A stretch of DNA of 64,000 bases from Planctomycetota bacterium (lineage in GTDB: Bacteria; Planctomycetota; UBA1135; GCA-002686595): assembly GCA_002686265.1 (NCBI GenBank), contig NZBA01000042.1, forward strand, positions 10,363 through 74,362. The letters are read 5' to 3'. The position numbers were made by a program, and so were the translations under genes. Below, piece by piece: positions 2,622 through 28,289 of the stretch (the stretch's first letter is position 1; the number at the start of each line of letters is the position of its first letter). The notes beneath the pieces were generated by a model. The model was given only the letters and a program-made list of their open reading frames with translations, made no database searches and was not told where the DNA came from.

Positions 2622-5600
2622 TCAACGCTCGTCCTCACCTGCGGTCGAGCGCAGGTAGGCCAGGAGATCGAGGATCTCGTCTTGGTCGAGGGTGACCAGC
2701 AGCCCGGTCGGCATGGGCGAGAGGGGGGTCACGCGTCGAGACTCGATCTCCTCGACGTCCACGACGGTCACGCGCTCGGGTTCCTGGAGGTCCTGGAGCA
2801 CCCGGAGCTCGGCATCATCATCCGCGAGGACACGCCCGATCACGCTCGATCCGTCCCACAGACGGATGTAGTGGGCCTCGTATCCCTCGAGGATCTCCAG
2901 CGAGGGCTCGATGATGTGCCTGAGGTGTTCGGCGGCCTCGTACTTCGCGGCCGTTTGTGAGAGATCGGGACCTCCCGCCGTTCCCTCGCCGCCGAATGCG
3001 TGGCACTTGATGCAGCCGGTGTCGGCGAACAGGCTCCGCCCTCGTTCTGAGGAGCGCCCCGCCGCCCAGTCGCCCTCGATGAGGGGCAGCAGGTCATCGG
3101 TGTTCCAATCGTGGACGAACTCGCGCGTGGGTGTGGGAGGCGCTTGTGTTTCTCGCCGCGTCACCACGTGATCCCCCGTCAGCTCCTCCACGACGTGCAT
3201 CACGCCGTTCATCACCGCCCAGTGGCCCGGAAACGTGCAGACGAACGGGTAGTCGCCGGGGGTCGTGGGGGCGACGAAACTCAACCGCTCGAACTCGCCG
3301 GGATTCAACAGGCCCGTGTACCACAGGACCTCGTCGGTCTCGGGGATGAAGCCTCGGCTCCCGTCCCCGGTCAGTGCCTCCGCCGCTCGGCCGACGCGCT
3401 CCAACGCACCGGTGGCGGTGATGACCAGGTTGTGGGGCATCAGATCGTTGTTCTGGAACAGCACCGCGACCGGCTCGCCGGCGTCAACCCAGAACTCGGT
3501 CAAGTCGTAGAGCATGCGGTGGGGGAGCGTGCGGATCAAGACGATCGATCCCCCCAAGCCGGCGAGCTGCGAATGGGCCGTGTCGGCTTGCGCCGCCGGC
3601 AGGGCGTCGGCCAGCTCCCGGCCGAGCTCGAGCGCAGCCACGACGTCGGGGCGGGTTCGTTCCCGCGCGTCCAGCCCGGCGACGTAGGCGGCGATGGCGT
3701 CCACGCCGGAGCGCACCCCCTTGGTGGAAACTCGTTCGACCCTCACCCCGTCCAGCAGCTCGATCGCTTCGCCGAGCAGTGTGCCCTCGCCGATCAAGTG
3801 TGCGGTGTCGCTGAACTTCTCCTCCTCGTGGCCGGGAACGTGCGCCATGGCCCGAATGGCCGCCGAGCGCACTCTGCGCGAGCCGTCGCCGCCCAAGGCC
3901 TCGTCGGGGATCGGGCGCTTGGAGAACCCCGGGCCCTCCCAGGCGACGGAAAGGTGCTGTGCGCCGCCACGCTCGTAGAAGGTGACCACGATCGGGTGGC
4001 GGCCCGCCTCGAGCTCGATCGAACCGCTGCGCTCCGCGATGCCGTGATCGCCGTCGTTGTTCACGACGCAGGTGCGATCGATGTACAAGCGCGAGCCGTC
4101 ATCCGAGCGCGTGCTGAAGGTGTAGCGCCCGCTGACGGGGACGCGCAGGATGCCCTCGAAGCGCAGTCCGTAGGAATCGCTGCGCCCGTTGATCGGGAGC
4201 TCGTGGGTGACCTTCGGTGCGCGGAACAGCTTCGTCGCCGTGAGGTTCGCAAAGGTCTCGAGCTGCGCGTCACGAGGCGCGGGCTCGAAGGCGGCGACCG
4301 CCAGGCCCGGCTCTCCGCGGACCTGTCCGCCCTCGTCGCGGGCGAGGGCCGGCGGCAGGGCGAACATCAACGGGCGGATTCTCCCGTAGAGCTCCGTGCG
4401 GAGCTCGGGGTCCGCGACCAAGCCGACGCCGCCGAGGATCGACTGTAGACCGTCGCGCGAGCGGGCTGCTTTCGTCCAGAGCACGTCAAAGGTCCCATCC
4501 AGCGTAACCAGCGCCGCACTGGCCAGCTCGCGTGTGAGGTCGTTGTGTCCCCGCTCAGTGAGTTCCTCCAGGGCGGGGCGCAAGCTGTCGGAGAGTCTGG
4601 TCGTGAGCAGCTCACCGAGCCCGCGGAGGACGTGCGCCGCGTGCGCGCCCTGGGAGCGATCGACGACCCCGATGGCCGCGAGGATCTCCCCGCCGACGCT
4701 GGTGCCGCGCTCGCGTGCCAGCTCGGCGGCGGCCTCCAAGCGCAGCTCCTCCTCGACGCCGTGGCGCGTGAGCAGCGCCTGGAGCACCGCCTGGACACGC
4801 GGGAGGCGCAGGAGCTCCTCGGGGCCGACCCGCTCCAGGAGGTACTCGATCCCGGCGGGATTGTCGCTGACGAGGGGACGACCCTCGGCCAGGGCCTCTC
4901 GCCAGTGGACCTCGAGGGCACGCATCGTCTCGCGCAAGGCGTAATCGAGGAAGCGGTCGGTGGGGTGTCGCAGGGCCTCCAATGCCGCGCCCGCGGCCTC
5001 GCTCGACTGGAACGCGCTGGCGGCCACCACGGCCTCGAGCCTCACCCTGGGGTGCTCGTCGCCCGCCTGGACGTGCAGCAGCTCCACGGCGTCGGTCACT
5101 TGTCCGCGCATGGCACGCAAGACGCGGGTCGCCGCGGCCCGCGCGCGCGGGTCCTCGGCTCGCAGGCAGCGCACGAGCAGCTCGCGATCCATGCGGTCGT
5201 GCTGCTGGTGGAGCCAGAGAGCTTCGAGTAGATCGTGCTCGTAGCCGGGGGCGGTATCGTCGCGCTCCGCCGCCCACCCCGCGGCCGCGCGGACGACTTC
5301 GTCTGAGTCGTGGCGGGAGAGCTCGATCCGTGTTCGATAGCGCACACGATCAGCGGGCGAGCCCAACAACGCCAGCAGGGCTTCGATCCCCTGTCCCGCG
5401 ATGGCGGGCGGTGTGGAGAGAGGCCGGTCTTCGTAGGTCACGCGGTAGACCCGTCCGTGCTCCGCGTCGCGGCTGGGATCGCGCAGGTGGTGTTGGAGGT
5501 GGCCGATGATCGGGTTGTGCCAGTCCAGGAAGTAGATCGCGCCGTCGGGTCCCATCTCCACGTCCGCCGGGCGAAAGTTGGGGTCGGAGCTCTGTACGAT

Positions 5601-19327: not shown

Positions 19328-19446
19328 CTGTCTGATCGATCTTTGGAAAAAGTGCTCGTCTGACAGCATCCCGAAGGATCCATGAGGGATCGGAGCGGGG
19401 CACAAGCAAGCGGAGAAGAGAGAACTACCGCCTCCGGGTGACCTGT

Positions 19447-19522
19447 TGGAGCGGGCGACGGGACTCGAACCCGCGACATCAAGCTTGGGAAGCTTGCACT
19501 CTACCAACTGAGTTACGCCCGC
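19447..19522 (-). tRNA. tRNA-Gly (anticodon CCC), CCA encoded
   Basis: The reverse complement is GCGGGCG TA ACTC AGTTGGTA GAGT G CAAGC TTCCCAA GCTTG ATGTC GCGGG TTCGAGT CCCGT CGCCCGC T CCA. It folds with a 7-bp acceptor stem, 4-bp D stem, 5-bp anticodon stem, loop TTCCCAA, T-loop TTCGAGT and discriminator U. Length is 76 nt. Confidence 0.9.
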
Positions 19523-19638
19523 AGGGTCACCCTGGGAGGACGGGTCGCACAGCGTACAGGCAAGACCGCCTGCCATCAATGCGGCAGTGCTGTATCCTGC
19601 CCGCAACCCACCTCCACCACCACTCCCGGACCTCTCCC

Positions 19639-20913
19639 ATGATGATCGCCTCCACAATCCTGCTCTGCGCCGCCCCCTGCGGGCCTCTTCAGGAGCCCAA
19701 CACCCTCAGCGAAGTCGAGCGCGCCGCGGGCTGGACCTTGGCTTTCGACGGCCGGACGCACGCCGGTTGGCGCCGGTTTCGGGGCGAGGGCTTCCCCGAG
19801 GGGGGCTGGGCCGTGGAGGAGGGCTCCCTGCACAAGCTGGCGGGGGCAGGCGGTGGAGATCTGGTCAGCGAGCGAGGGTACCAGGACTTCGAGTTCGCAT
19901 TTGAGTGGAAGGTCGCCTCCGGTGCCAACAGCGGGATCATGTACCGCGTCAGCGAGGAGCGCGGCAACACCTGGGAGACGGGGCCGGAGTACCAGATCCT
20001 CGACGACACCGGGCACCACGACGGTCGCCGCGCCGAGACCTCGGCGGCTTCCCTGTACGCGATGATCGCCCCGGAGCCGAGCGTCCTCAAACCCGTGGGC
20101 GAGTGGAACAGTGGTCGCATCCTCGTCGTCGGCAACCACGTCGAGCACTGGCTCAACGGTGCCCGTGTCGTCGCCTTCGAGCTGCACGACGAGGCCTGGA
20201 AGGAGCTCATCGAGGGTTGCAAGTTCAAGAACATGCCCGGCTTCGGCAAGGAGCGCCGCGGGCACATCGCCCTGCAGGACCACGGCGACGACGTGTGGTA
20301 CCGCAACCTGAAGATCCGAGACCTCGACTTCGACGACGAGCGAGCCGGTACCTTGTTCAACGGTCGGGACCTGGCCGGCTGGACACACCATCTCGACGGA
20401 GAGGTTGACGCATCGGCGGTGTGGAGTGTCAGCGAGGAGGGCGTGCTCGTTTGCCGTGGCCGGCCGATCGGCTACCTGCGCACCGAGGACGATCACGAGA
20501 ACTTCGTCCTGCGGCTCGAGTGGCGCTTCAACCCGGTGACGAAGGAGGCCGGCAACAGCGGTGTCCTCCTGCGCCAGCTCGGTCCCGACAAGGTCTGGCC
20601 CCGCAGTATCGAGGCCCAGCTCCAGAGCGGTGCGGCCGGGGATTTCTGGAACATCGACGCCTTTCCGATGAAAGTCGTCGAGGAGCGTACGAGTGGGCGC
20701 AACACCCGTAGGACCGGAACCAACGAGTCACCGATCGGTGAGTGGAACCGCTACGAGATCACCGCTTGGAAGGGAAACGTCGTCCTGCGCGTGAACGGCG
20801 AGGTCCTCAATCAAGCCTGGGACTGTCTGGAAACGCCGGGGAAGATCTGCCTCCAATCGGAGGGAGCGGAGATCCACTTCCGGAGGATCGCACTCACCTC
20901 CCTGGGTTCCTGA
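19639..20913 (+). CDS. Secreted protein with two DUF1080 (3-keto-disaccharide hydrolase-like) domains
   Basis: Start at MMIASTILLCAA. Two copies of the pattern GW..F......W.V.DG.L ... GDL.S...Y.DFEL..EW....GNSG...R ... EYQILD ... GEWN...I...G....H.LNG ... G.I.LQ.HG..V.FRNI.I. Confidence 0.85.
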   Translation: MMIASTILLCAAPCGPLQEPNTLSEVERAAGWTLAFDGRTHAGWRRFRGEGFPEGGWAVEEGSLHKLAGAGGGDLVSERGYQDFEFAFEWKVASGANSGIMYRVSEERGNTWETGPEYQILDDTGHHDGRRAETSAASLYAMIAPEPSVLKPVGEWNSGRILVVGNHVEHWLNGARVVAFELHDEAWKELIEGCKFKNMPGFGKERRGHIALQDHGDDVWYRNLKIRDLDFDDERAGTLFNGRDLAGWTHHLDGEVDASAVWSVSEEGVLVCRGRPIGYLRTEDDHENFVLRLEWRFNPVTKEAGNSGVLLRQLGPDKVWPRSIEAQLQSGAAGDFWNIDAFPMKVVEERTSGRNTRRTGTNESPIGEWNRYEITAWKGNVVLRVNGEVLNQAWDCLETPGKICLQSEGAEIHFRRIALTSLGS

Positions 20914-20922
20914 TGCGGGAGC

Positions 20923-22029
20923 TCAGGGTAGCCAGATGATCTCCATTCCGTTGGTCAGGTTGAAGGTCGTGCCGCACGGGCTGGTTTGCGGATCGCGATA
21001 CCACAGCTGGTAGCGCTTGGTGCCGCCGACTGATACGCCACCCTGTTCGGCGATGCTGACCGTCGTGCTCGAGGCGCCACTCGCGTCGGCCACCCGCACC
21101 TGCAGGCGAACCACGTTGCCGCCGGCACAGCGCAGTCCGTCTCCGAAGACCACGCCCGCGCCGCCGTTCACCGCATTGTCGCCCTGGAAGTAGAGACCGG
21201 GCTGGTTGGGAGCCAGCTGCGAACCCTCGAGGGCGAGGTCCTCGGTGGTCACGCTGCTCGATCCGCTCGCCCCCAGCAAGGCTCCCAGTCCCGTGCCGTT
21301 CATGCAGCCCTCGCCCGAGCCGCCGAAGTTCCCGCAGGGGCAGGAAGCACTACTGCCGTCCCCGAAGCAGAACGCCTGCTGGGGCGTGATCGAGTCGGCG
21401 ATGATGTCGCCCATCAACGTGAAATCGAAAGTGATCCCCGTCGAGGGCTCGACGAACTGCAGGAGATGGAACTGGGGAGAGTCGATATGGACCGTTCCGT
21501 TGGGGAGCACGGTGAACTGACCGAAGACGACTTGCGAGGTTCCCGAAACGCCGGCGAGGTCGTACTCGTAGGGAAACGTCCCGAGCAGAATGAAGTGCAC
21601 GACGCCGGCGGAGAATTCGAACGTGAACTCACCCTGGAAGCTGCCGTCGGAGGTCGTCGGGTCTCCGAAGTCCAGCGGAAGGGACGTCACTCCGCACACG
21701 ACCCCCTCGAAGTGAAACTCGACCAGCGGGGGCGCGCCGGGGATCGGGTTGGGAAAGTAGCCCATGATGTCGGGAGTCCAGGCGACGGTTCCGTTCTCGA
21801 AGGTACCGGAGCTCACGTTCCCGCTGGCGTTCATGCCCAGCTCCGCGAACTGCACCCCCGACCACTCGAATTCGTTGTCGATGACCGGGACGGCGCTGGC
21901 GTTCATGGCCGTCATCGTCCACTCCCACTGGGACTGGGCGCTATCCATCCAGAGTGTGGTGTTCTGGGCTTGGGCCGCCGTCGTCGTGAGAGTGATGACT
22001 CCGAGGACGCTGATGAGGGTGTGTTTCAT
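20923..22029 (-). CDS. Secreted 368-aa protein: unknown N-domain plus C-terminal six-Cys module (paralogue A)
   Basis: Signal peptide MKHTLISVLGVITLTTTAAQAQ. AAGGAAGGA lies 7 nt before the ATG. C-terminus: CFGDGSSASCPCGNFGGSGEGCMNGT ... NQPGLYFQGDNAVNGGAGVVFGDGLRCAGG ... YQLWYRDPQTSPCGTTFNLTNG. Confidence 0.75.
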   Translation of the reverse strand: MKHTLISVLGVITLTTTAAQAQNTTLWMDSAQSQWEWTMTAMNASAVPVIDNEFEWSGVQFAELGMNASGNVSSGTFENGTVAWTPDIMGYFPNPIPGAPPLVEFHFEGVVCGVTSLPLDFGDPTTSDGSFQGEFTFEFSAGVVHFILLGTFPYEYDLAGVSGTSQVVFGQFTVLPNGTVHIDSPQFHLLQFVEPSTGITFDFTLMGDIIADSITPQQAFCFGDGSSASCPCGNFGGSGEGCMNGTGLGALLGASGSSSVTTEDLALEGSQLAPNQPGLYFQGDNAVNGGAGVVFGDGLRCAGGNVVRLQVRVADASGASSTTVSIAEQGGVSVGGTKRYQLWYRDPQTSPCGTTFNLTNGMEIIWLP

Positions 22030-22094: not shown

Positions 22095-23201
22095 TCAGGG
22101 AAGCCAGAAGATCTCCATCCCGTTGGTCAGGTTGAAGGTCGTGCCGCACGTGGTCGTCTGGGGGTCGCGGTACCAGAGCTGGTAGCGCTTGGTGGAGCCG
22201 GCCGCGACGCCGCCCTCGGCCCCGACGTCAATCGTGGTGTTCGAGGCGCCGCCGGAGTCGGCGGCGCGCACCTGCAGGCGGGCGACTCCGCCGCCGGCGC
22301 AGCGCAAGCCGTCGCCGAAGGTGACGCCCGCGCCGCCGTTCACGGCGTTGTCGCCTTGGAAGTAGAGTCCGGGCTGACCGGGGACCAGCTGGGAGCCGTG
22401 CAGGACGAGATCGCCGTCGGAGATGCTCGTGCTGCCACTCGCGCTGAGCACGGCGCCCTGGAGGGTGCCGTTCATGCAGCCCTCGCCCGTCCCTCCGAAG
22501 TTCCCGCAGGGACAGGTGCTCGCGCTGCCGTCACCGAAGCAGAAAGCCTGCTGCGTGATGAGCGAGTCCGCAACGATGTCCCCCCACAGGTCGATCGTGA
22601 ACGTGATTCCCGTGCTGGGCTCGGTGACGACCGCGTTGTGGCTCTGGAACGAGTCGAGGTGGATGGTCCCGCCGGGCAGGACGGTGAACTGCCCGAAGAC
22701 CACCTGGGAGTTCGTCGCCAGGCCGGTGAGGTCGAAGTCGTAGGGGAATCCGCCCAGGATCACCAAGTGGACGATGCCGCTGGTGAACACGTACTCCGAG
22801 TCGCCCTGGAAGCTCCCGTCGGAGGTAGCGGGATCACCGAAGTCGAGCGGAAGGGACTGGGCGGAGAGCTCGACGCCGTAGATCTGGAAATCGACGAGGT
22901 TGGGGAGCCCCGGGATCGGGTTCGGGAAGAAGCCCTCGATGTCGGGGAAGATCGTGACCTCCGAATCGATGAACTGACCCGAGCTCACGTTGCCGCTGGC
23001 GTTGGTCCCCAGCTCGATGTACAGGGGGCCGTACAGATCGAACTCGTTGTCGATCAACGGCACCGCGTTCTGATTGAGTGCCGAGGCGTCCCACTCCCAT
23101 GCGGAGGCCGCGGAGTCGATCCACATGGTCGTGTTCTGGGCCAGGGCGGCGGGGGCGCCGAGGGCGAGCAGGGCGGAGAAGGTGGCGATCGAGGTCTTCA
23201 T
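22095..23201 (-). CDS. Secreted 368-aa protein: unknown N-domain plus C-terminal six-Cys module (paralogue B)
   Basis: Signal peptide MKTSIATFSALLALGAPAALAQ. Same length and colinear with 20923..22029 (QNTTxWxDSA, IDNEF, NASGNVSSG, FPNPIPG, LPLDFGDPxTSDGSFQG, SQVVFGQFTVLP, EPSTGITF). It carries the same C-terminal module. Confidence 0.75.
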   Translation of the reverse strand: MKTSIATFSALLALGAPAALAQNTTMWIDSAASAWEWDASALNQNAVPLIDNEFDLYGPLYIELGTNASGNVSSGQFIDSEVTIFPDIEGFFPNPIPGLPNLVDFQIYGVELSAQSLPLDFGDPATSDGSFQGDSEYVFTSGIVHLVILGGFPYDFDLTGLATNSQVVFGQFTVLPGGTIHLDSFQSHNAVVTEPSTGITFTIDLWGDIVADSLITQQAFCFGDGSASTCPCGNFGGTGEGCMNGTLQGAVLSASGSTSISDGDLVLHGSQLVPGQPGLYFQGDNAVNGGAGVTFGDGLRCAGGGVARLQVRAADSGGASNTTIDVGAEGGVAAGSTKRYQLWYRDPQTTTCGTTFNLTNGMEIFWLP

Positions 23202-23416: not shown

Positions 23417-24502
23417 ATGGCTTCGATGCTCATCGTCGTTTCCCTGCTCTGCTGGTTCGCCGCGAGCCCTGACTCGGATCCCCTGCCGGACGCGGCGCTG
23501 CCCGACTCCCTGCGGCTGCACCAGATCCAGGCTCTGGGGACGCACAACAGCTACCACGTCGCCCCGCGTATCGCGCTCCATCCCTCCCACCGCTACACGC
23601 ACGCGCCCCTGGCCGAACAGCTCGCAGTCCAGGGCGTGCGCCAGCTCGAGCTCGACGTCCATCTGCGGGAGGGCGAGGGCTTCGAGGTCTTCCACCTGCC
23701 GGTGATCGATGATGCCACTCGTTGCCTGGAGTTCGGCGCCTGCCTGCGCTCCATCCGCGACTGGTCGCGAGCGAATCCCGTGCACGTCCCGCTCTTGATC
23801 TGGATCGAGCCCAAGGACGAGCTGGACGGGAGCGTGGACGGATTGGTCTCGATCGAGGGGCGTTACGACTTGCTCGAGGCGGAGATCCGGGCGACCTGGC
23901 CGCGTGAGCGCCTGATCGTCCCCGACGACGTTCGCGGCGAGAGCGACTCCCTTCCGGCCGGGATCGCCGAGCGCGGCTGGCCGACCCTGGGTGAGTCGCG
24001 CGGGAAGACGCTCTTCGCCTTGCTCGACACGCAGCGGCACCGCGACGCCTACGTCCAAAGCGCCCCGCTCCTCGAAGGGCGTGTTCTCTTCGCAGCCGCC
24101 ACGGATACGAGGCAACCCTACGCCGCGCTCTTCAAACTGGGCGACGTGAGGGGGCGCGAGGAGCGAATCCGCGAACTGCTCGGGGCGAGCTTCATCGTGA
24201 CCGCCACGGCCGACCACGCGGACGCGGAGCCCGCGGAGAACCAGGCGCGCATGCGCGCGACCTTGCTCTCGGGCGTGCAGTTCATCAGCACCGACTTCCC
24301 GGCGGCGGGGGAGGAGGGGACCTACTGGATGCGGATGCCCGGCGGGGCGAGCGTGCGCGCCAACCCTGTCACCGCTCCCTCCTCGGCCCAGGGAGCCTCG
24401 GAGCCGCGACCTTCGGGCGGGCCTGGCGAGGATGCCGCTCTCGAGCCTCCCGGAGGGAACCTCGGCGGCGCGGGAGGGTTACACTCCCGGACCATCCCGT
24501 GA
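23417..24502 (+). CDS. PLC-like phosphodiesterase (Ca-dependent PI-PLC X-domain-like)
   Basis: N-terminal hydrophobic segment, then IQALGTHNSYH ... GVRQLELDVH ... VFHLP, typical of the PI-PLC-like TIM-barrel phosphodiesterase family. The C-terminus has QFISTDFP. Confidence 0.65.
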   Translation: MASMLIVVSLLCWFAASPDSDPLPDAALPDSLRLHQIQALGTHNSYHVAPRIALHPSHRYTHAPLAEQLAVQGVRQLELDVHLREGEGFEVFHLPVIDDATRCLEFGACLRSIRDWSRANPVHVPLLIWIEPKDELDGSVDGLVSIEGRYDLLEAEIRATWPRERLIVPDDVRGESDSLPAGIAERGWPTLGESRGKTLFALLDTQRHRDAYVQSAPLLEGRVLFAAATDTRQPYAALFKLGDVRGREERIRELLGASFIVTATADHADAEPAENQARMRATLLSGVQFISTDFPAAGEEGTYWMRMPGGASVRANPVTAPSSAQGASEPRPSGGPGEDAALEPPGGNLGGAGGLHSRTIP

Positions 24503-24550
24503 TCGCTCGCGCCGCTGCCGCCTAGCCCTCGCGAACAAGCCTCCACCTGC

Positions 24551-25744
24551 ATGATCTACCGCCACATCGCCGCGCACCTGAGTTCCGTGGGCCTGGCCAT
24601 CGCCCTCGCCAACCCCACCGCCCTCGCCTTTCCCTTGCCCCAGGAGGGCGGCGACGAGATCGCCGACGCCCTACGCAAGCTCGAGACCGAGGCCGACTCC
24701 GTCTGGGAGTACATGACGAACGTCTACGACGCCGACCACGACGGTGCGATCACCTTCACCGAGTACGCGCGCACGAAGGAGGCCTTCGAGCGCCTCGACG
24801 TGGACAAGAGCGGGACACTCACCCGCGAGGACTTCGCGCGCGGCGGGGCGCAAGGGGGCGGCGGCCGCCGGGGCGGTGGCCGCCGAGGCGGGGCGGGGCG
24901 CGGAGAGCGTGGTGGCCGGGGGGGCGGCGAAGCTCGCTCGGGCCGCGAGGGCCGTCGTTCCGCGCGGGCGCGCAGCCCCAAGGTGGGGGCGCCGGCTCCG
25001 GATTTCGAGCTGGTCGTGCTCGAGGAACCCGCCGCTCCGCCCGAGAGCGGCGCAGCCCCAGCCGCCGGCGGCGAGCGGGAAGAGCCCGCGCCGCCCGCGC
25101 CGCCCGCTGCAGGAGAGAAGGGCGAGCAGGGGAAGAAGGGCAAGAAGGACCAAGAGGGCGAGGACGGGAAGAAGGAGGACCCCGAGAAGATCAGGCTCTC
25201 TTCGTTCAAGGGCAAGCGAGCCGTCGCTTTGATCTTCGGCAGCTACACATGACCTCCCTTTCGTCGCTCGGTCGGGCGACTCAAGGAACTGCAGGCTTCC
25301 TACGGTGAGAAGGTCGAGTTTCTGGTGGTCTACATAGCCGAGGCCCACGCCTTCGACGGCGCCTCGCCCCGTGGGGGCCGCGACGGGAATCCAATCGTCG
25401 AGGAGCCGATATCGATTGATGAGCGCCTCGCGGTCGCGACGGTCTGCCGCGAGCGGCTGGACCTCTCTCCGATGACCGTGCTGATCGACGACATGAAGAA
25501 CACCGCGGACGGGGCCTACGCGGGCTTCCCCGACCGTCTCTACCTCGTCGGCAGAAACGGCCGCGTGGCCTACGCCGGGGACCCGGGGCCGATCGGATTC
25601 CGTCCCGACGAGCTGGAGGCCGCCATGCGCGCCGAGCTCGGCCTGCCGCCGTTGCCGAAGCCGGAGCCCGAGTCCCCGGCCGAAGACGGCGCGGGGTCGG
25701 ACGGGGGCCGCCGGCGGCCTGGCGGCGGGGAAGACGCGCGCTGA
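24551..25744 (+). CDS. Secreted EF-hand plus deiodinase-like thioredoxin-fold selenoprotein (in-frame TGA at 25250..25252 read as Sec)
   Basis: Track ORFs 24551..25252 and 25325..25744 are in the same frame and separated by a single TGA. Read-through gives KRAVALIFGSYT-U-PPFRRSVGRLKELQASYGEKVEFLVVYIAEAHAFDG ... DDMKNTADGAYAGFPDRLYLVGRNGRVAYAGDPGP, which is the deiodinase-type active-site context. The N-terminus has a signal peptide and EF-hand loops DADHDGAITFTE and DVDKSGTLTRED. Confidence 0.7.
25257..25286 (+). promoter_or_regulatory. Candidate bacterial SECIS hairpin
   Basis: It starts 5 nt after the TGA. Structure: CCUU/AAGG (4 bp), a 2x2 internal loop UC/UC, GUCGC/GCGAC (5 bp), and an 8-nt apical loop UCGGUCGG containing GGUC 18-21 nt downstream of the UGA. 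Folded by eye only. Confidence 0.45.
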
Positions 25745-25782
25745 CCCCTACGCCCGAATCCCTCGCGACCTTCGGCGCGGCG

Positions 25783-26481
25783 ATGGCGCGCCTGGAGGAG
25801 GAGCTCGACTGGGAACGCCTCGGACGCACCTACTGCAGCGAGGGCGGCGAAGCGTTCTTCCCGCCCGCCCAGCGCGAGGCCGTGCGTGATGTCGGGCTGC
25901 TGATGACCTCCGATCTAAGCGAAGCCCTGGACGGGCGGGCCGGGGGCAGCGTGTACGTCGGCGCGGCTCTCGCTGAGCTCGCGCCCCTGCTCTGCGAGCG
26001 CATCGTCCTCGGCCGCGAGGTTCGCGCCCTGAACCTCCCCAACGCCGAGACCGAGGAGCTCAATCGCGCCCTGAGGGTCGTCTCCGCTTCGCTCGGACGC
26101 GAGTTGGGTACGATCGAGGTCCAGCCCTTGGCGTCCCTGGCGGGCGCGGGCTTCGACCACGCCTGGGTCGTGAGTATCCTGACCGACCCGGAGGCCTTCC
26201 CCGCCCTGCACGACGAGCTCTACGAGCGCCGAGGCACGGCCCTCGCGACGGGCCGCGGTGACCTGGATCGGGACCGTCGGCGCGCCGCGGCCCTGGTCGA
26301 CGAGCTGCTCGACGCCCTCGCGCCGCCATTCCTGTTGACCACGACCGACGAGGAGCTCGCGCTGCTGGTTCCCGCCTGCGAGCGCCGCGGCCTGCGCCTG
26401 GCGATCCCCGACCACGCACGCCTCTCGGCGGTCGTCGGGGACCCGGTCCGCATCTGTCGCGCCGGGCGCGCCTCGCGCTAG
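25783..26481 (+). CDS. Hypothetical protein
   Basis: 232-aa ORF starting 38 nt after the selenoprotein stop on the same strand. Third-position GC is typical for coding. I recognise no motif. Confidence 0.5.
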   Translation: MARLEEELDWERLGRTYCSEGGEAFFPPAQREAVRDVGLLMTSDLSEALDGRAGGSVYVGAALAELAPLLCERIVLGREVRALNLPNAETEELNRALRVVSASLGRELGTIEVQPLASLAGAGFDHAWVVSILTDPEAFPALHDELYERRGTALATGRGDLDRDRRRAAALVDELLDALAPPFLLTTTDEELALLVPACERRGLRLAIPDHARLSAVVGDPVRICRAGRASR

Positions 26482-28289
26482 CCGCGCGCCGCGCGGGCGA
26501 GCTTCTTACGCTGGTCGGCCCCCAGGACGCGCTTGCGCAGGCGCAGGTCGCGGGGCGTCACCTCCAGGAGCTCGTCGTCCTCGATGTACTCGAGGTACTC
26601 CTCGAGCGACATCTCGCGCGGCGGCGTGAGCTGGACGGCGATGTCCTTGGTGGAGGAGCGGATGTTGGTCAGCTTCTTCGTGCGGCAGGCGTTGACGGGC
26701 AGGTCGTCCAGCTTGCCGTTGGAGCCCACGATCATGCCCTCGTAGACCTCCACGCCCGGGCCGACGAAGAAGATCCCGCGATCGGAGAGGGAGTCGAGCG
26801 CGTGGGCGACCGCTGAACCAGCGCGGTCGGAGACCAGAACTCCGGTCGAGCGGCGCGGGATGCGCCCGCCGTCGGTCTTCCATGCGTCGAAGACGTGGCT
26901 CAGGATCGCTTCGCCACGGCTGAGGCTGAGCAGCGACGTTCGCGCCCCGATCAGGCTGCGCGCGGGCAGGGAGAACTCCAGGCGCGTCGTGTTGCCGCGC
27001 GTGTCCATGTTCAACAGCTCGCCGCGGCGCCGGCCGAGGTACTCGATGATGCGCCCGGCGTGGTCGGCGGGGACCTCGACCGTCGCCCTCTCGTAGGGCT
27101 CGTGAGCTCGGCCATCGATCTCCCGGATGATCACGCGCGGCTTGCCCACGGCGAACTCGAAACCCTCGCGGCGCATGTTCTCGATCAGCACGCCGATGTG
27201 CATCAGGCCGCGGCCTCTGACCTCGAAGCGATCCCCGGCCGAGCCCCGGTTGACCGAGAGGGCCACGTCGCGGATCTGCGCGCGCTCGAGGCGGTCGAGC
27301 AGGTGGCGGCTCGTGACGTAGCGTCCCTCCTGTCCGGCGAAGGGCGAGTCGTTCACCAGGAACTCCATGGTGATCGTCGGCTCGTCGATCGTGATCGCCG
27401 GCAGCGGTTCGACGTGCTCGGGATCACAGAGCGTGTCGCCGATGGACAGGTCGTCGATTCCGGCCACGACGGCGACGTCTCCGGCGGAAACCGACTCGAC
27501 CGCGATGCGCTCGAGCCCCGCGTGGCGGAAGAGGCCCTTCACCGAGACCAGCGGGCTCGACTTGCGGTCGGGGTGGCACAGGCGCAGGCGCGCGCCCGCT
27601 TCGAGCTTGCCGCGCTCCACGCGCCCGATGGCGATTCGGCCCACGAAGTCGTCGTGTTCCAGGGTCGTGGCCTGGAAGCGCACCGCCGCTTCCGAGTCGT
27701 TCAGCGGCACGGGGACCTCCGTCAGGATCATCTCGAACAGCGGAGCGAGGTCCGTCCGGGGCGCCTCGGGCTGAGCGGCGGCGTAGCCGGCGCGGCCGGA
27801 GCCGAAGATCACGGGGAAGTCGAGCTGCTCCTCGCCGGCTCCGAGCTCGACGAACAGATCGAAGACCTCGGTCAGCACGTCGTCGGGGCGGGCATCGACG
27901 CGGTCGATCTTGTTGACCATCACCAGCACGCGCAGTCCCCTCTCGAGGGCCTTGCGCAGCACGAAGCGCGTTTGGGGCATCGGCCCCTCGAAGGCGTCGA
28001 CCAACAGGAGCACCGCGTCCGCCAGGGAGAGCGTGCGCTCGACCTGCCCGCCGAAGTCGGCGTGTCCGGGCGTGTCGACGATGTTGATGCGCACGCCGGC
28101 GTAGTTGATGGCGGTGTTCTTGGCCAGGATGGTGATACCCCGTTCGCGCTCCTGCGCGTCGCTGTCGAGCGCGCGCTCGCGAAGTTGCTGATTGGCGCGC
28201 ACGGTCCCGGCGAAGCGGAACATGGCGTCTACCAGGGTGGTCTTCCCGTGGTCGACGTGGGCGACGATGGCGATGTTTCGGATGCTCAC
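26478..28289 (-). CDS. typA: Translational GTPase TypA/BipA
   Basis: [45 protein letters not shown] and NKIDR are present, with a BipA-type C-terminal domain. The GTG start at 28289 overlaps the upstream stop (GTGA). This gives 603 aa, typical for TypA. Confidence 0.9.

Follow-up and report, generated by a model that had tools for sequence, protein, structure and literature searches.

The locus and its reading frame

The stretch of DNA analyzed here, referred to as the window, comprises 64,000 nucleotides of contig NZBA01000042.1 from a Planctomycetota bacterium, and its feature of interest is a putative selenoprotein gene on the forward strand. One frame of 397 codons, including that of selenocysteine (Sec) 234, plus a stop codon extends from the ATG at 24551 to the stop at 25742-25744. 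The only in-frame TGA of 24551..25744 is located at 25250-25252, and there is no further internal stop. The open reading frame (ORF) lister reported two ORFs, 24551..25252 (233 amino acids [aa]) and 25325..25744 (139 aa, GTG start), with an offset of 774 nucleotides (3 x 258), and read-through of the TGA joins FGSYT to PPFRRSVGRL...VVYIAEAHAFDG...DDMKNTADGAY..PDRLYLVG. The G+C content of the window is 69.7%, and that of third codon positions (GC3) is ~0.85 in both halves of the gene, as coding DNA should show. A preliminary description of this DNA, made from the letters and an ORF list, had joined the two ORFs into one gene, and this held, as the ORFs share the same frame, are split inside one Pfam domain, and have no other stop codon between them. 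With high confidence, we consider 24551..25744 to be a single gene for an exported bacterial deiodinase-like (PF00837) selenoprotein with an N-terminal EF-hand pair from a marine-type member of the Planctomycetota. The gene and the elements that bear on its decoding are as follows.

24551..25744, + strand: predicted complete selenoprotein gene (single frame, one TGA; start region common to the closest relatives, L006 and L007)
25250..25252, + strand: predicted UGA codon for selenocysteine, Sec234 (alignment with Sec170 of Dio3; TGA conserved in relatives)
25257..25286, + strand: extended hairpin with an outer 4-bp helix, CCUU/AAGG (minimum-free-energy fold)
25263..25280, + strand: core hairpin of the predicted Sec insertion sequence (SECIS), 7 bp, GUCGCUC-GGUC-GGGCGAC (loop GGUC at 25270-25273, 17 nucleotides past the UGA)

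Decoding of the UGA codon

Profile searches were run on the read-through protein with Cys in place of the UGA-encoded residue. As had been anticipated, the protein matched the Pfam T4_deiodinase and EF-hand models above their cut-offs, and the T4_deiodinase match (PF00837; E = 5.3e-26; 91.8 bits versus a gathering score of 27) covers aa 219 to 358 and thus spans the UGA. The only solved structures matched were those of Dio3 from mouse (4TR3; E = 5e-19) and Dio2 (9H48; E = 2e-16), in each case the catalytic core. The UGA position, which the preliminary description had already assigned to a deiodinase-type active site, was aligned with the catalytic Sec170 of Dio3 and Sec130 of Dio2 (mutated to Cys in the crystals). 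The motifs of the window protein and their counterparts in Dio3 are FGSYT-U-PPF and FGSCT-C-PPF, VYIAEAHAFDG and IYIEEAHPSDG, DDMKNT and DTMANS, and PDRLYLV and FERLYVI, respectively.

One genome per species (GTDB representatives) was scanned with the protein part downstream of the UGA, and 80 loci were obtained. The aligned codon is TGA in 77 of these, TGC in one (L083), and misaligned in two. Homologues with Cys at this position include P0004, P0005, P0007, and P0008, as well as the EF-hand-bearing proteins P0031, P0036, and P0039; the alternation between TGA and Cys and the retention of the downstream part bear out the earlier reading. Three homologues of the same architecture (P0001 to P0003; ~36% identical) all end in ...ALIFGSYT. 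The next codon in their contigs is TGA, past which the sequence continues in frame with PPFRSSVGRL...VVYISEAHALDG...PDRLYLV up to a normal stop codon. Downstream of the UGA, the codon changes with respect to L006 and L007 are 38 synonymous and 14 nonsynonymous and 47 synonymous and 12 nonsynonymous, respectively, with third positions favored; judged by these changes, the region is under purifying selection.

Folding reproduced the hairpin with a GGUC loop that had been proposed at 25257-25286 and placed its 7-bp core at 25263-25280. A hairpin of at least 4 bp was present in all 78 homologous sequences compared, and 75 of them had one of 5 to 9 bp. The apical loops include GGUC (38 sequences), GGU (11 sequences), and GGUCG (4 sequences), and the loop starts either 16 to 17 or 20 to 21 nucleotides past the UGA. 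Global RNAalifold analysis found no consensus structure for the 78 UGA-flanking sequences taken together because the hairpin register differs by clade, whereas a register-wise split gave covariation of the core stem: (i) in the register of the window (11 sequences), 97% of the cells were paired, compared to 21 to 44% when the register was slid, and there were 15 double-change cells, compared to 3.9 after shuffling (0/500); (ii) in the Planctomycetota register at +21 (30 sequences), 93% of the cells were paired, compared to 15 to 49%, with 24 double changes against 5.5 (0/500); and (iii) in Acidobacteriota, Chloroflexota, and others (27 sequences), 90% were paired, compared to 42 to 60%, with 34 double changes against 10 (0/500). 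The native UGA-flanking RNAs were also more stable than RNAs that encode the same peptides with resampled synonymous codons (mean z = -1.13; n = 78). Hairpin energies of nearly all Sec forms ranged from -6 to -13 kcal/mol, whereas the hairpins of five Cys-form genes were weak (-1.3 to -5.3 kcal/mol) and lacked a GGU loop. The rule for bacterial SECIS elements is a stem of 6 to 8 bp and a conserved loop G ~20 nucleotides after the UGA (PMC4605307). The geometry of the element at 25263-25280 fits this rule, and its predicted bacterial SECIS form is strongly supported.

In three relatives, a tRNA-Sec(UCA) gene is found immediately downstream of the orthologue and convergent with it, 3 nucleotides (L019), 26 nucleotides (L022), and ~300 nucleotides (L021) past its stop codon. 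In L019 and L022, the tRNA gene is followed by genes for SelA (Pfam E values of 1e-129 to 6e-137) and SelB (winged-helix and beta-barrel domains). These Sec machinery stretches are located in contigs of Planctomycetota metagenome-assembled genomes (MAGs).

L019, 4400-8374: Sec machinery
L022, 4423-7942: Sec machinery
L021, 1064-1160: Sec machinery

Gene callers split the locus in the same way here and in public data, and the window itself has no tRNA-Sec, selA, or selB gene, both of which speak for the TGA as a genuine stop codon. The locus would then encode a small secreted EF-hand protein and contain a separate gene at 25325..25744, or it would be a pseudogene or carry a sequencing error in a TGC or TGT codon. 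However, the break falls within one Pfam domain, at the catalytic residue, and the TGA shared by 77 of the 80 loci recurs across species and phyla. The downstream part is in frame and under purifying selection, the covarying hairpin follows the TGA in TGA forms only, and selC, selA, and selB adjoin the gene in relatives. This explanation is effectively refuted, and we give it almost no credence.

A continuous protein would likewise result if the UGA specified a standard amino acid, either through genome-wide reassignment (to Trp or Gly, as in codes 4 and 25) or through near-cognate read-through that needs no SECIS, and the machinery of the source genome is indeed unseen. However, TGA terminates most of the long high-GC3 ORFs of the window, including the Pfam-confirmed genes for the PI-PLC-like protein, amidase, 3-keto-disaccharide hydrolase, sulfatase, and glycosyltransferase. 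Since TGA is the ordinary stop codon of these genes, UGA is not reassigned genome-wide. In addition, the site is occupied by Cys in homologues and by Sec in animal deiodinases, and a structured SelB-type hairpin is conserved, which makes such decoding scarcely credible. Two scans of the window for further genes with an in-frame TGA yielded only implausible frames, with filters of low power that missed the true gene as well. The C that follows the UGA, here set by the Pro codon, makes a poor termination context in E. coli. Altogether, seven independent lines agree and strongly support the prediction that the UGA at 25250 is decoded as Sec.

Domain anatomy, fold, and possible chemistry

The segments of the predicted 397-residue protein are listed below.

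24551..24628, + strand: predicted Sec-type signal peptide, aa 1-26, MIYRHIAAHLSSVGLAIALANPTALA, with cleavage before FP (basic n-region, hydrophobic core, A-L-A motif)
24728..24763, + strand: EF-hand loop 1, aa 60-71, DADHDGAITFTE (PROSITE PS00018; Pfam EF-hand_1/5/6)
24797..24832, + strand: EF-hand loop 2, aa 83-94, DVDKSGTLTRED (PROSITE PS00018; Pfam EF-hand_1 best at aa 76-96)
24839..24973, + strand: Arg/Gly-rich low-complexity segment, aa 97-141 (from the translation)
24983..25027, + strand: first strand motif of the thioredoxin-fold domain, aa 145-159, VGAPAPDFELVVLEE (homologue comparison)
25028..25183, + strand: Pro/Ala/Lys/Glu-rich intradomain insertion, aa 160-211 (clade comparison)
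25184..25636, + strand: deiodinase-like thioredoxin-fold core, aa 212-362 (Pfam T4_deiodinase; Dio3/Dio2 matches)
25340..25348, + strand: invariant Glu264-Ala-His266 of VYIxEAH (100% in 78 members; equivalent to Dio3 Glu200 and His202)
25445..25447, + strand: codon of Cys299, candidate resolving cysteine (Cys in 92% of 78 members)
25637..25741, + strand: Pro/Gly/Arg-rich C-terminal tail, aa 363-397 (from the translation; variable among relatives)

The signal peptide and the two canonical EF-hand loops of the preliminary description were both recovered, the former as a signal-like segment that is plausible by eye and by hydropathy (15-residue Kyte-Doolittle mean of up to 1.9), and the N termini of homologues are comparable. 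Both EF-hand loops match PS00018, and the Pfam scores are above the cut-offs (EF-hand_1, 33.8 bits versus 25.4; EF-hand_6, 30.6 versus 25; EF-hand_5, 29.2 versus 25.9). The loops are spaced by 23 residues from start to start, and this spacing is fixed for the paired EF-hand loops of all EF-hand-bearing relatives, whereas the spacing of roughly 36 in calmodulin-type EF-hand pairs is much longer. The short inter-loop spacing is the only lanmodulin-like trait of the pair. Lanmodulin itself (NCBIfam NF053806) was rejected, with a score of 18.4 bits versus a cut-off of 135 and with Ala and Val, not Pro, at loop position 2. The "sensing" of Ca2+ is an assumption, and constitutive structural binding would be at least as likely in an exported marine protein.

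Of the two low-complexity linkers described earlier, the RG-rich segment is present and is also found in L001, L004, L006, L007, L010, L011, and L015, while the KE-rich stretch turned out not to connect domains but to be located inside the thioredoxin-fold domain. This stretch (aa 160-211) is limited to the clade of the window (window, L001, L004, L006 to L011, and L013 to L017) and absent from the other family members. Because it is clade specific and preceded by the strand motif GAPAPDFEL, it is an insertion within the catalytic domain. The pattern G..APDF.L occurs 15 to 25 residues ahead of FGSYTU in most homologues, and in relatives the motif aligns with the beginning of the Redoxin and AhpC-TSA profiles.

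The NCBIfam model NF038285 ("deiodinase family protein," a hypothetical equivalog) gave 160.4 bits, below its cut-off of 250, and the match is confined to profile positions 193 to 340 of 347, i.e., to the shared C-terminal domain. By this comparison, the protein shares the NF038285 domain but is not that equivalog. The fold was analyzed with an AlphaFold2 model of the EF-hand-bearing Cys-form homologue P0031, which is 47% identical to the window protein over the domain. The mean pLDDT of the model is 77, with values of 87 to 98 in most of the deiodinase-like domain and in the first EF-hand pair. In a Foldseek search of the PDB, Dio3 ranked first (E = 5e-13; TM score, 0.78; root mean square deviation, 2.1 Å), together with Dio2; the second-tier matches, five orders of magnitude behind, were ResA, Etrx2, DsbE, DsbF, and the 1-Cys peroxiredoxin AhpE.

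The residues that are invariant or near-invariant among the 78 members are F229, G230, S231, T233, U234, P235, P236, F237, R238, V260-Y261-I262, E264, A265, H266, D269, C299, D313, Y323, P327-D-R-L-Y331, G337, and G346-P347-x-G349-F350. Cys299 is the sole Cys of the mature protein, lacks an equivalent in Dio1-3, and is likely, from its conservation, to act as the resolving cysteine. An additional conserved Cys was also noted in the EF-hand/deiodinase-like fusion family (PMC9402790).

Several points weigh against the overall assignment as an exported, Ca2+-binding, deiodinase-like selenoprotein. Neither tRNA-Sec (ARAGORN and Rfam) nor selA or selB was detected in the 64-kb window (selD was not searched for), and Rfam at gathering thresholds reported only tRNA-Gly; the Sec machinery of the source genome is therefore inferred. 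The hairpin of the window taken alone is no better than chance (z = -0.65 against dinucleotide shuffles, at 70% G+C), and its significance therefore comes from the comparison of homologues and not from the single-sequence fold. No conserved neighborhood hinting at a substrate or redox partner was found beyond the closest relatives, L006 and L007. Signal peptide cleavage and Ca2+ binding are both predictions, and the structure model is that of a Cys-form homologue, not of the window protein. Finally, several residues of the Dio enzymes are changed (His219 to Pro, Cys239 to Met, Cys168 to Tyr, and Arg275 to Pro); with residues of mammalian thyronine turnover lost, deiodinase-type chemistry is not assured.

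The proton-relay and substrate roles proposed in mammalian deiodinases involve Ser, Thr, Glu200, His202, His219, and Arg275/Lys241, with Cys168 and Cys239 as accessory residues (PMC11592359). From this set, Ser231, Thr233, Glu264, and His266 are kept in the window protein. Shared chemistry is favored by the deiodinase insertion, which is retained together with its invariant Glu, His, and Asp, whereas thyronine-like substrates are disfavored because His219, Arg275, and the accessory Cys residues are lost, and thyroid hormone is not expected to be the substrate.

By analogy with the established bacterial pathway, the complex SelB.GTP.Sec-tRNA(Sec) would bind the GGUC-loop hairpin as the ribosome nears the UGA and deliver Sec. 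The protein would then be exported by the Sec pathway with cleavage of its signal peptide, and the two EF-hand loops would bind Ca2+ outside the cytoplasm, most likely as a constitutive structural or stabilizing module and not as a switch. The selenolate of Sec234 could serve as the nucleophile, aided by an invariant network of Ser231, Thr233, Glu264, His266, and Asp328 that the protein shares with mammalian deiodinases. The oxidized selenium (selenenic acid, or selenenyl halide in the case of a halogenated aromatic substrate) would be resolved by Cys299 to a selenenylsulfide, and an extracytoplasmic thiol-reducing pathway would recycle the enzyme.

Two kinds of chemistry were considered for such an enzyme. 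It could act outside the cytoplasm on a peroxide or disulfide, either as a peroxidase or as a thiol-disulfide oxidoreductase (peroxiredoxin- or ResA/TlpA-like), performing no halogen chemistry and having EF-hands that only stabilize or anchor the protein. The second-tier fold matches ResA, Etrx2, DsbE, DsbF, and AhpE and the weak profile matches to Redoxin and AhpC-TSA point in this direction, as does the conserved Sec234/Cys299 pair, which suits a two-residue redox cycle. Deiodinases are themselves peroxiredoxin-like in fold and mechanism (PMC11592359), the thyronine-binding residues are not kept, and a generic redox role was also proposed by the original authors (PMC1088965). However, both profile matches are under the Pfam cut-offs (Redoxin, 25.8 bits versus 26.6; AhpC-TSA, 18.0 versus 26), the peroxidatic motif PxxxTxxC is absent (the Sec is found in the context L-I-F-G-S-Y-T-U), and the deiodinase-specific insertion with E264, H266, and D269 is present in all 78 members. 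We rate such a redox role at slightly less than an even chance.

The other possibility is a true reductive dehalogenase of extracellular marine halogenated phenolics (e.g., iodo- or bromotyrosine-like or bromophenol compounds), in which the selenolate would abstract X+ and the aryl carbanion would be protonated via the Glu/His relay. Iodothyronine deiodinases are the closest relatives in both sequence and structure, FGSxT-U-PPF and the deiodinase-specific insertion are conserved, and the relatives come largely from marine metagenomes, as judged by isolate names. On the other hand, His219, Arg275, and both accessory Cys residues of the mammalian enzymes are changed, no linked genes point to halogen metabolism, and the bacterial members are without any biochemical data (PMC1088965, PMC13188914). 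Dehalogenation of this kind thus seems possible but unlikely. More speculative still, and in our opinion improbable, is the broader proposal that the family provides marine Planctomycetota with an extracellular Ca2+-stabilized enzyme for reductive dehalogenation (or for other redox chemistry specific to halogens or selenium) and is possibly the main reason why these lineages keep the Sec machinery, as hinted by the selC-selA-selB adjacency in some genomes. In that case, the enzyme would be the bacterial equivalent of animal deiodinases, with environmental organohalogens as its targets, and the chemistry of the animal enzymes may have evolved from it.

Distribution and gene neighborhood

The 80 loci are mostly from Planctomycetota MAGs, with the rest from Acidobacteriota/Bryobacterales, Chloroflexota, and delta- and gammaproteobacterial MAGs, and many relatives are marine according to isolate names (ALOHA, Arabian Sea, ANT). 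EF-hand loops (PROSITE-type, 1 to 6 per protein) were found in ~45 of the 80 loci, which, with few exceptions, are from Planctomycetota or unclassified. The EF-hands are N-terminal in almost all of these and C-terminal in one Planctomycetia locus (L076). The acidobacterial, chloroflexotal, and proteobacterial members have N termini of 70 to 130 aa with signal-like segments and without EF-hands. When 1.84 billion cluster representatives were searched exhaustively with HMMER, the number of relatives was 1973 at E ≤ 1e-3, of which 514 were at E ≤ 1e-10. Among the 150 best relatives, 71 (about half) are fragments that begin just past the UGA site (split Sec forms), and 62 extend across it; the cluster-member names hold almost no annotation. 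Likewise, at least 77 orthologues in the species-representative genomes come out of standard gene calling split or truncated.

Cys-form proteins with both EF-hand and T4_deiodinase domains also exist, some with further domains. In P0149, a neutral-ceramidase-like N-terminal domain is fused to a Cys-form deiodinase-like protein, P0153 has a long C-terminal region named "alkylhydroperoxidase family enzyme" by its source, and P0053 is a Cys-form variant with a CPC motif. In P0057, Ser takes the place of the catalytic residue (FGSLTSPAL), and this variant is therefore probably redox-inactive. In Bryobacteraceae-type contigs (L086, L087, L089, and L090; P0004 to P0007), the Cys-form deiodinase-like domain forms a fusion with a long TPR array at its N-terminal side, and the gene is flanked on one side by a CarboxypepD_reg/OMP beta-barrel (TonB-dependent-receptor-like) gene and on the other by a TPR-rich (L086 and L087) or unannotated (L089 and L090) gene. 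Among the Sec forms, L068 has a TAG stop five codons past the UGA, after PPFRR (~4001-4020), and is a possible pseudogene or assembly error, and L013, L014, L016, and L017 have long (G/R/D)-rich C-terminal repeats, e.g., GGRGGDRGGRGG.

L006 and L007, the closest relatives at 80 to 83% identity, are syntenic with the window, which assigns it to a Planctomycetota genome. Directly upstream of the selenoprotein gene, at 23417-24502 (+), is a gene for a Ca2+-dependent PI-PLC-like phospholipase C (PF16670; E = 1.5e-63), which is present in L007 and not in L006. Because it is missing from L006, no functional linkage is proposed, and the pairing of two Ca2+ proteins is probably coincidental. Two tandem, paralogous 368-aa ORFs without a Pfam match are found at 20923-22029 (-) and 22095-23201 (-); they show cross matches of ~61 to 66% identity to each other's counterpart in L007, and both match the single copy in L006. 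A tRNA-Gly(CCC) gene is located at 19447-19522 (-) of the window and at 504-579 in L001, 45-120 in L005, 389-464 in L006, and 3102-3177 in L015. It closely precedes the orthologue in L001, L005, and L015 but lies 5 kb upstream in the window, where a 3-keto-disaccharide hydrolase-like gene, the two paralogues, and the PI-PLC-like gene intervene. This distance and the four intervening genes suggest insertions into an ancestral tRNA-Gly/selenoprotein neighborhood. The 5' end of ORF 19438-20913 overlaps the tRNA-Gly gene, and its true start is therefore probably further downstream. On the other side of the selenoprotein gene, 39 nucleotides downstream and on the same strand, a 232-aa ORF (25783-26481, +) without a Pfam match or a signal-like N terminus is kept only in L006 and L007 and may be cotranscribed with the selenoprotein gene. 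Scans for promoters and terminators over 24300-26600 found none.

Comparison with known systems

In 2005, Zhang, Fomenko, and Gladyshev (PMC1088965) described deiodinase-like selenoproteins of bacteria from the Sargasso Sea, along with Cys homologues and SECIS elements of the bacterial type, and the Global Ocean Sampling (GOS) data contained 22 Sec and 21 Cys sequences of this family (PMC2398784). A deiodinase-like protein fused with an EF-hand calcium-binding domain was reported in 2021 from the GOS metagenome (PMC9402790, Fig. 2B). The preliminary description did not recognize the architecture as a described one, and in this it was mistaken; since PMC9402790 already reports the fusion, the EF-hand/deiodinase-like architecture is not new, and the window protein adds a new member to a selenoprotein family and to a fusion subtype that were both known before. 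It shares with the PF00837 bacterial family the T4_deiodinase domain, the catalytic in-frame UGA, the downstream SECIS, the existence of Cys homologues, the mostly marine metagenomic origin, and the presumed redox function. Recent reviews list the deiodinase-like family with the motif UxxC (PMC9312934, PMC13188914), whereas the window protein has U-P-P-F and its 77 Sec-form relatives have U-P-P-F or U-G/E-P-F, none with Cys at +3. As the GOS table gives the family no motif (PMC2398784), UxxC is not a strict defining feature, and the U-P-P-F of the window protein and its relatives is nearer to the animal FGSxT-U-PPF.

The fusion of PMC9402790 has the same EF-hand and deiodinase-like selenoprotein domains and the extra conserved Cys, and it is covered there in one sentence and one figure panel, without taxonomy, SECIS analysis, or gene context. 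The present analysis adds the Planctomycetota as its main home, the range of EF-hand number and position, the insertion, the Sec-gene adjacency, and the Cys-form EF-hand fusions. In the literature searched, we found neither an assignment of the fusion mainly to Planctomycetota nor any mention of a single family with SECIS elements in two or three alternative registers, of U-P-P-F as a motif of the deiodinase-like family, of the intradomain insertion, or of the selC-selA-selB adjacency. The value of the locus lies mainly in annotation and in its being a candidate for the missing biochemistry, and established knowledge is not overturned. Bacterial deiodinase-like proteins have no known substrate 20 years on, and this subfamily, with its usable traits (Planctomycetota-centered distribution, signal-like N terminus, EF-hands, Sec/Cys pair, and adjacent Sec machinery in some genomes), is a reasonable target for expression and substrate screening.

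The predicted SECIS resembles that of the E. coli fdhF type in being a stem-loop directly 3' of the UGA inside the coding sequence, with its loop ~17 to 21 nucleotides past the UGA. The apical loop of the E. coli fdhF SECIS is short and contains G and U, like the GGUC here. In contrast to the fdhF-type element, the 7-bp core of the window hairpin is contiguous and shows no bulged U, and the register varies by clade within the deiodinase-like family (loop at +17 or +21).

ResA, CcmG/DsbE, TlpA, Etrx2, and DsbF have in common with the window protein a thioredoxin fold and an exported or membrane-anchored location outside the cytoplasm. However, ResA-type reductases use a CxxC dithiol, whereas the window protein has a Sec without Cys at +3, the deiodinase insertion, and far better scores against deiodinases. 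With Dio1-3 (4TR3, 9H48; PMC11592359), it shares the thioredoxin/peroxiredoxin-like fold, the deiodinase-specific insertion, FGSxT-Sec-PPF, YIxEAHxxDG, and the acidic residue of (E/D)RLY, and the identity in the comparison made with the P0031 model is 32 to 36%. Where Dio1-3 have a transmembrane anchor at the N terminus, the window protein has a signal-like segment and EF-hands; its conserved Cys (Cys299) is a different one, and its predicted SECIS is of the bacterial form and located inside the coding sequence, whereas that of the Dio genes is located in the 3' untranslated region.

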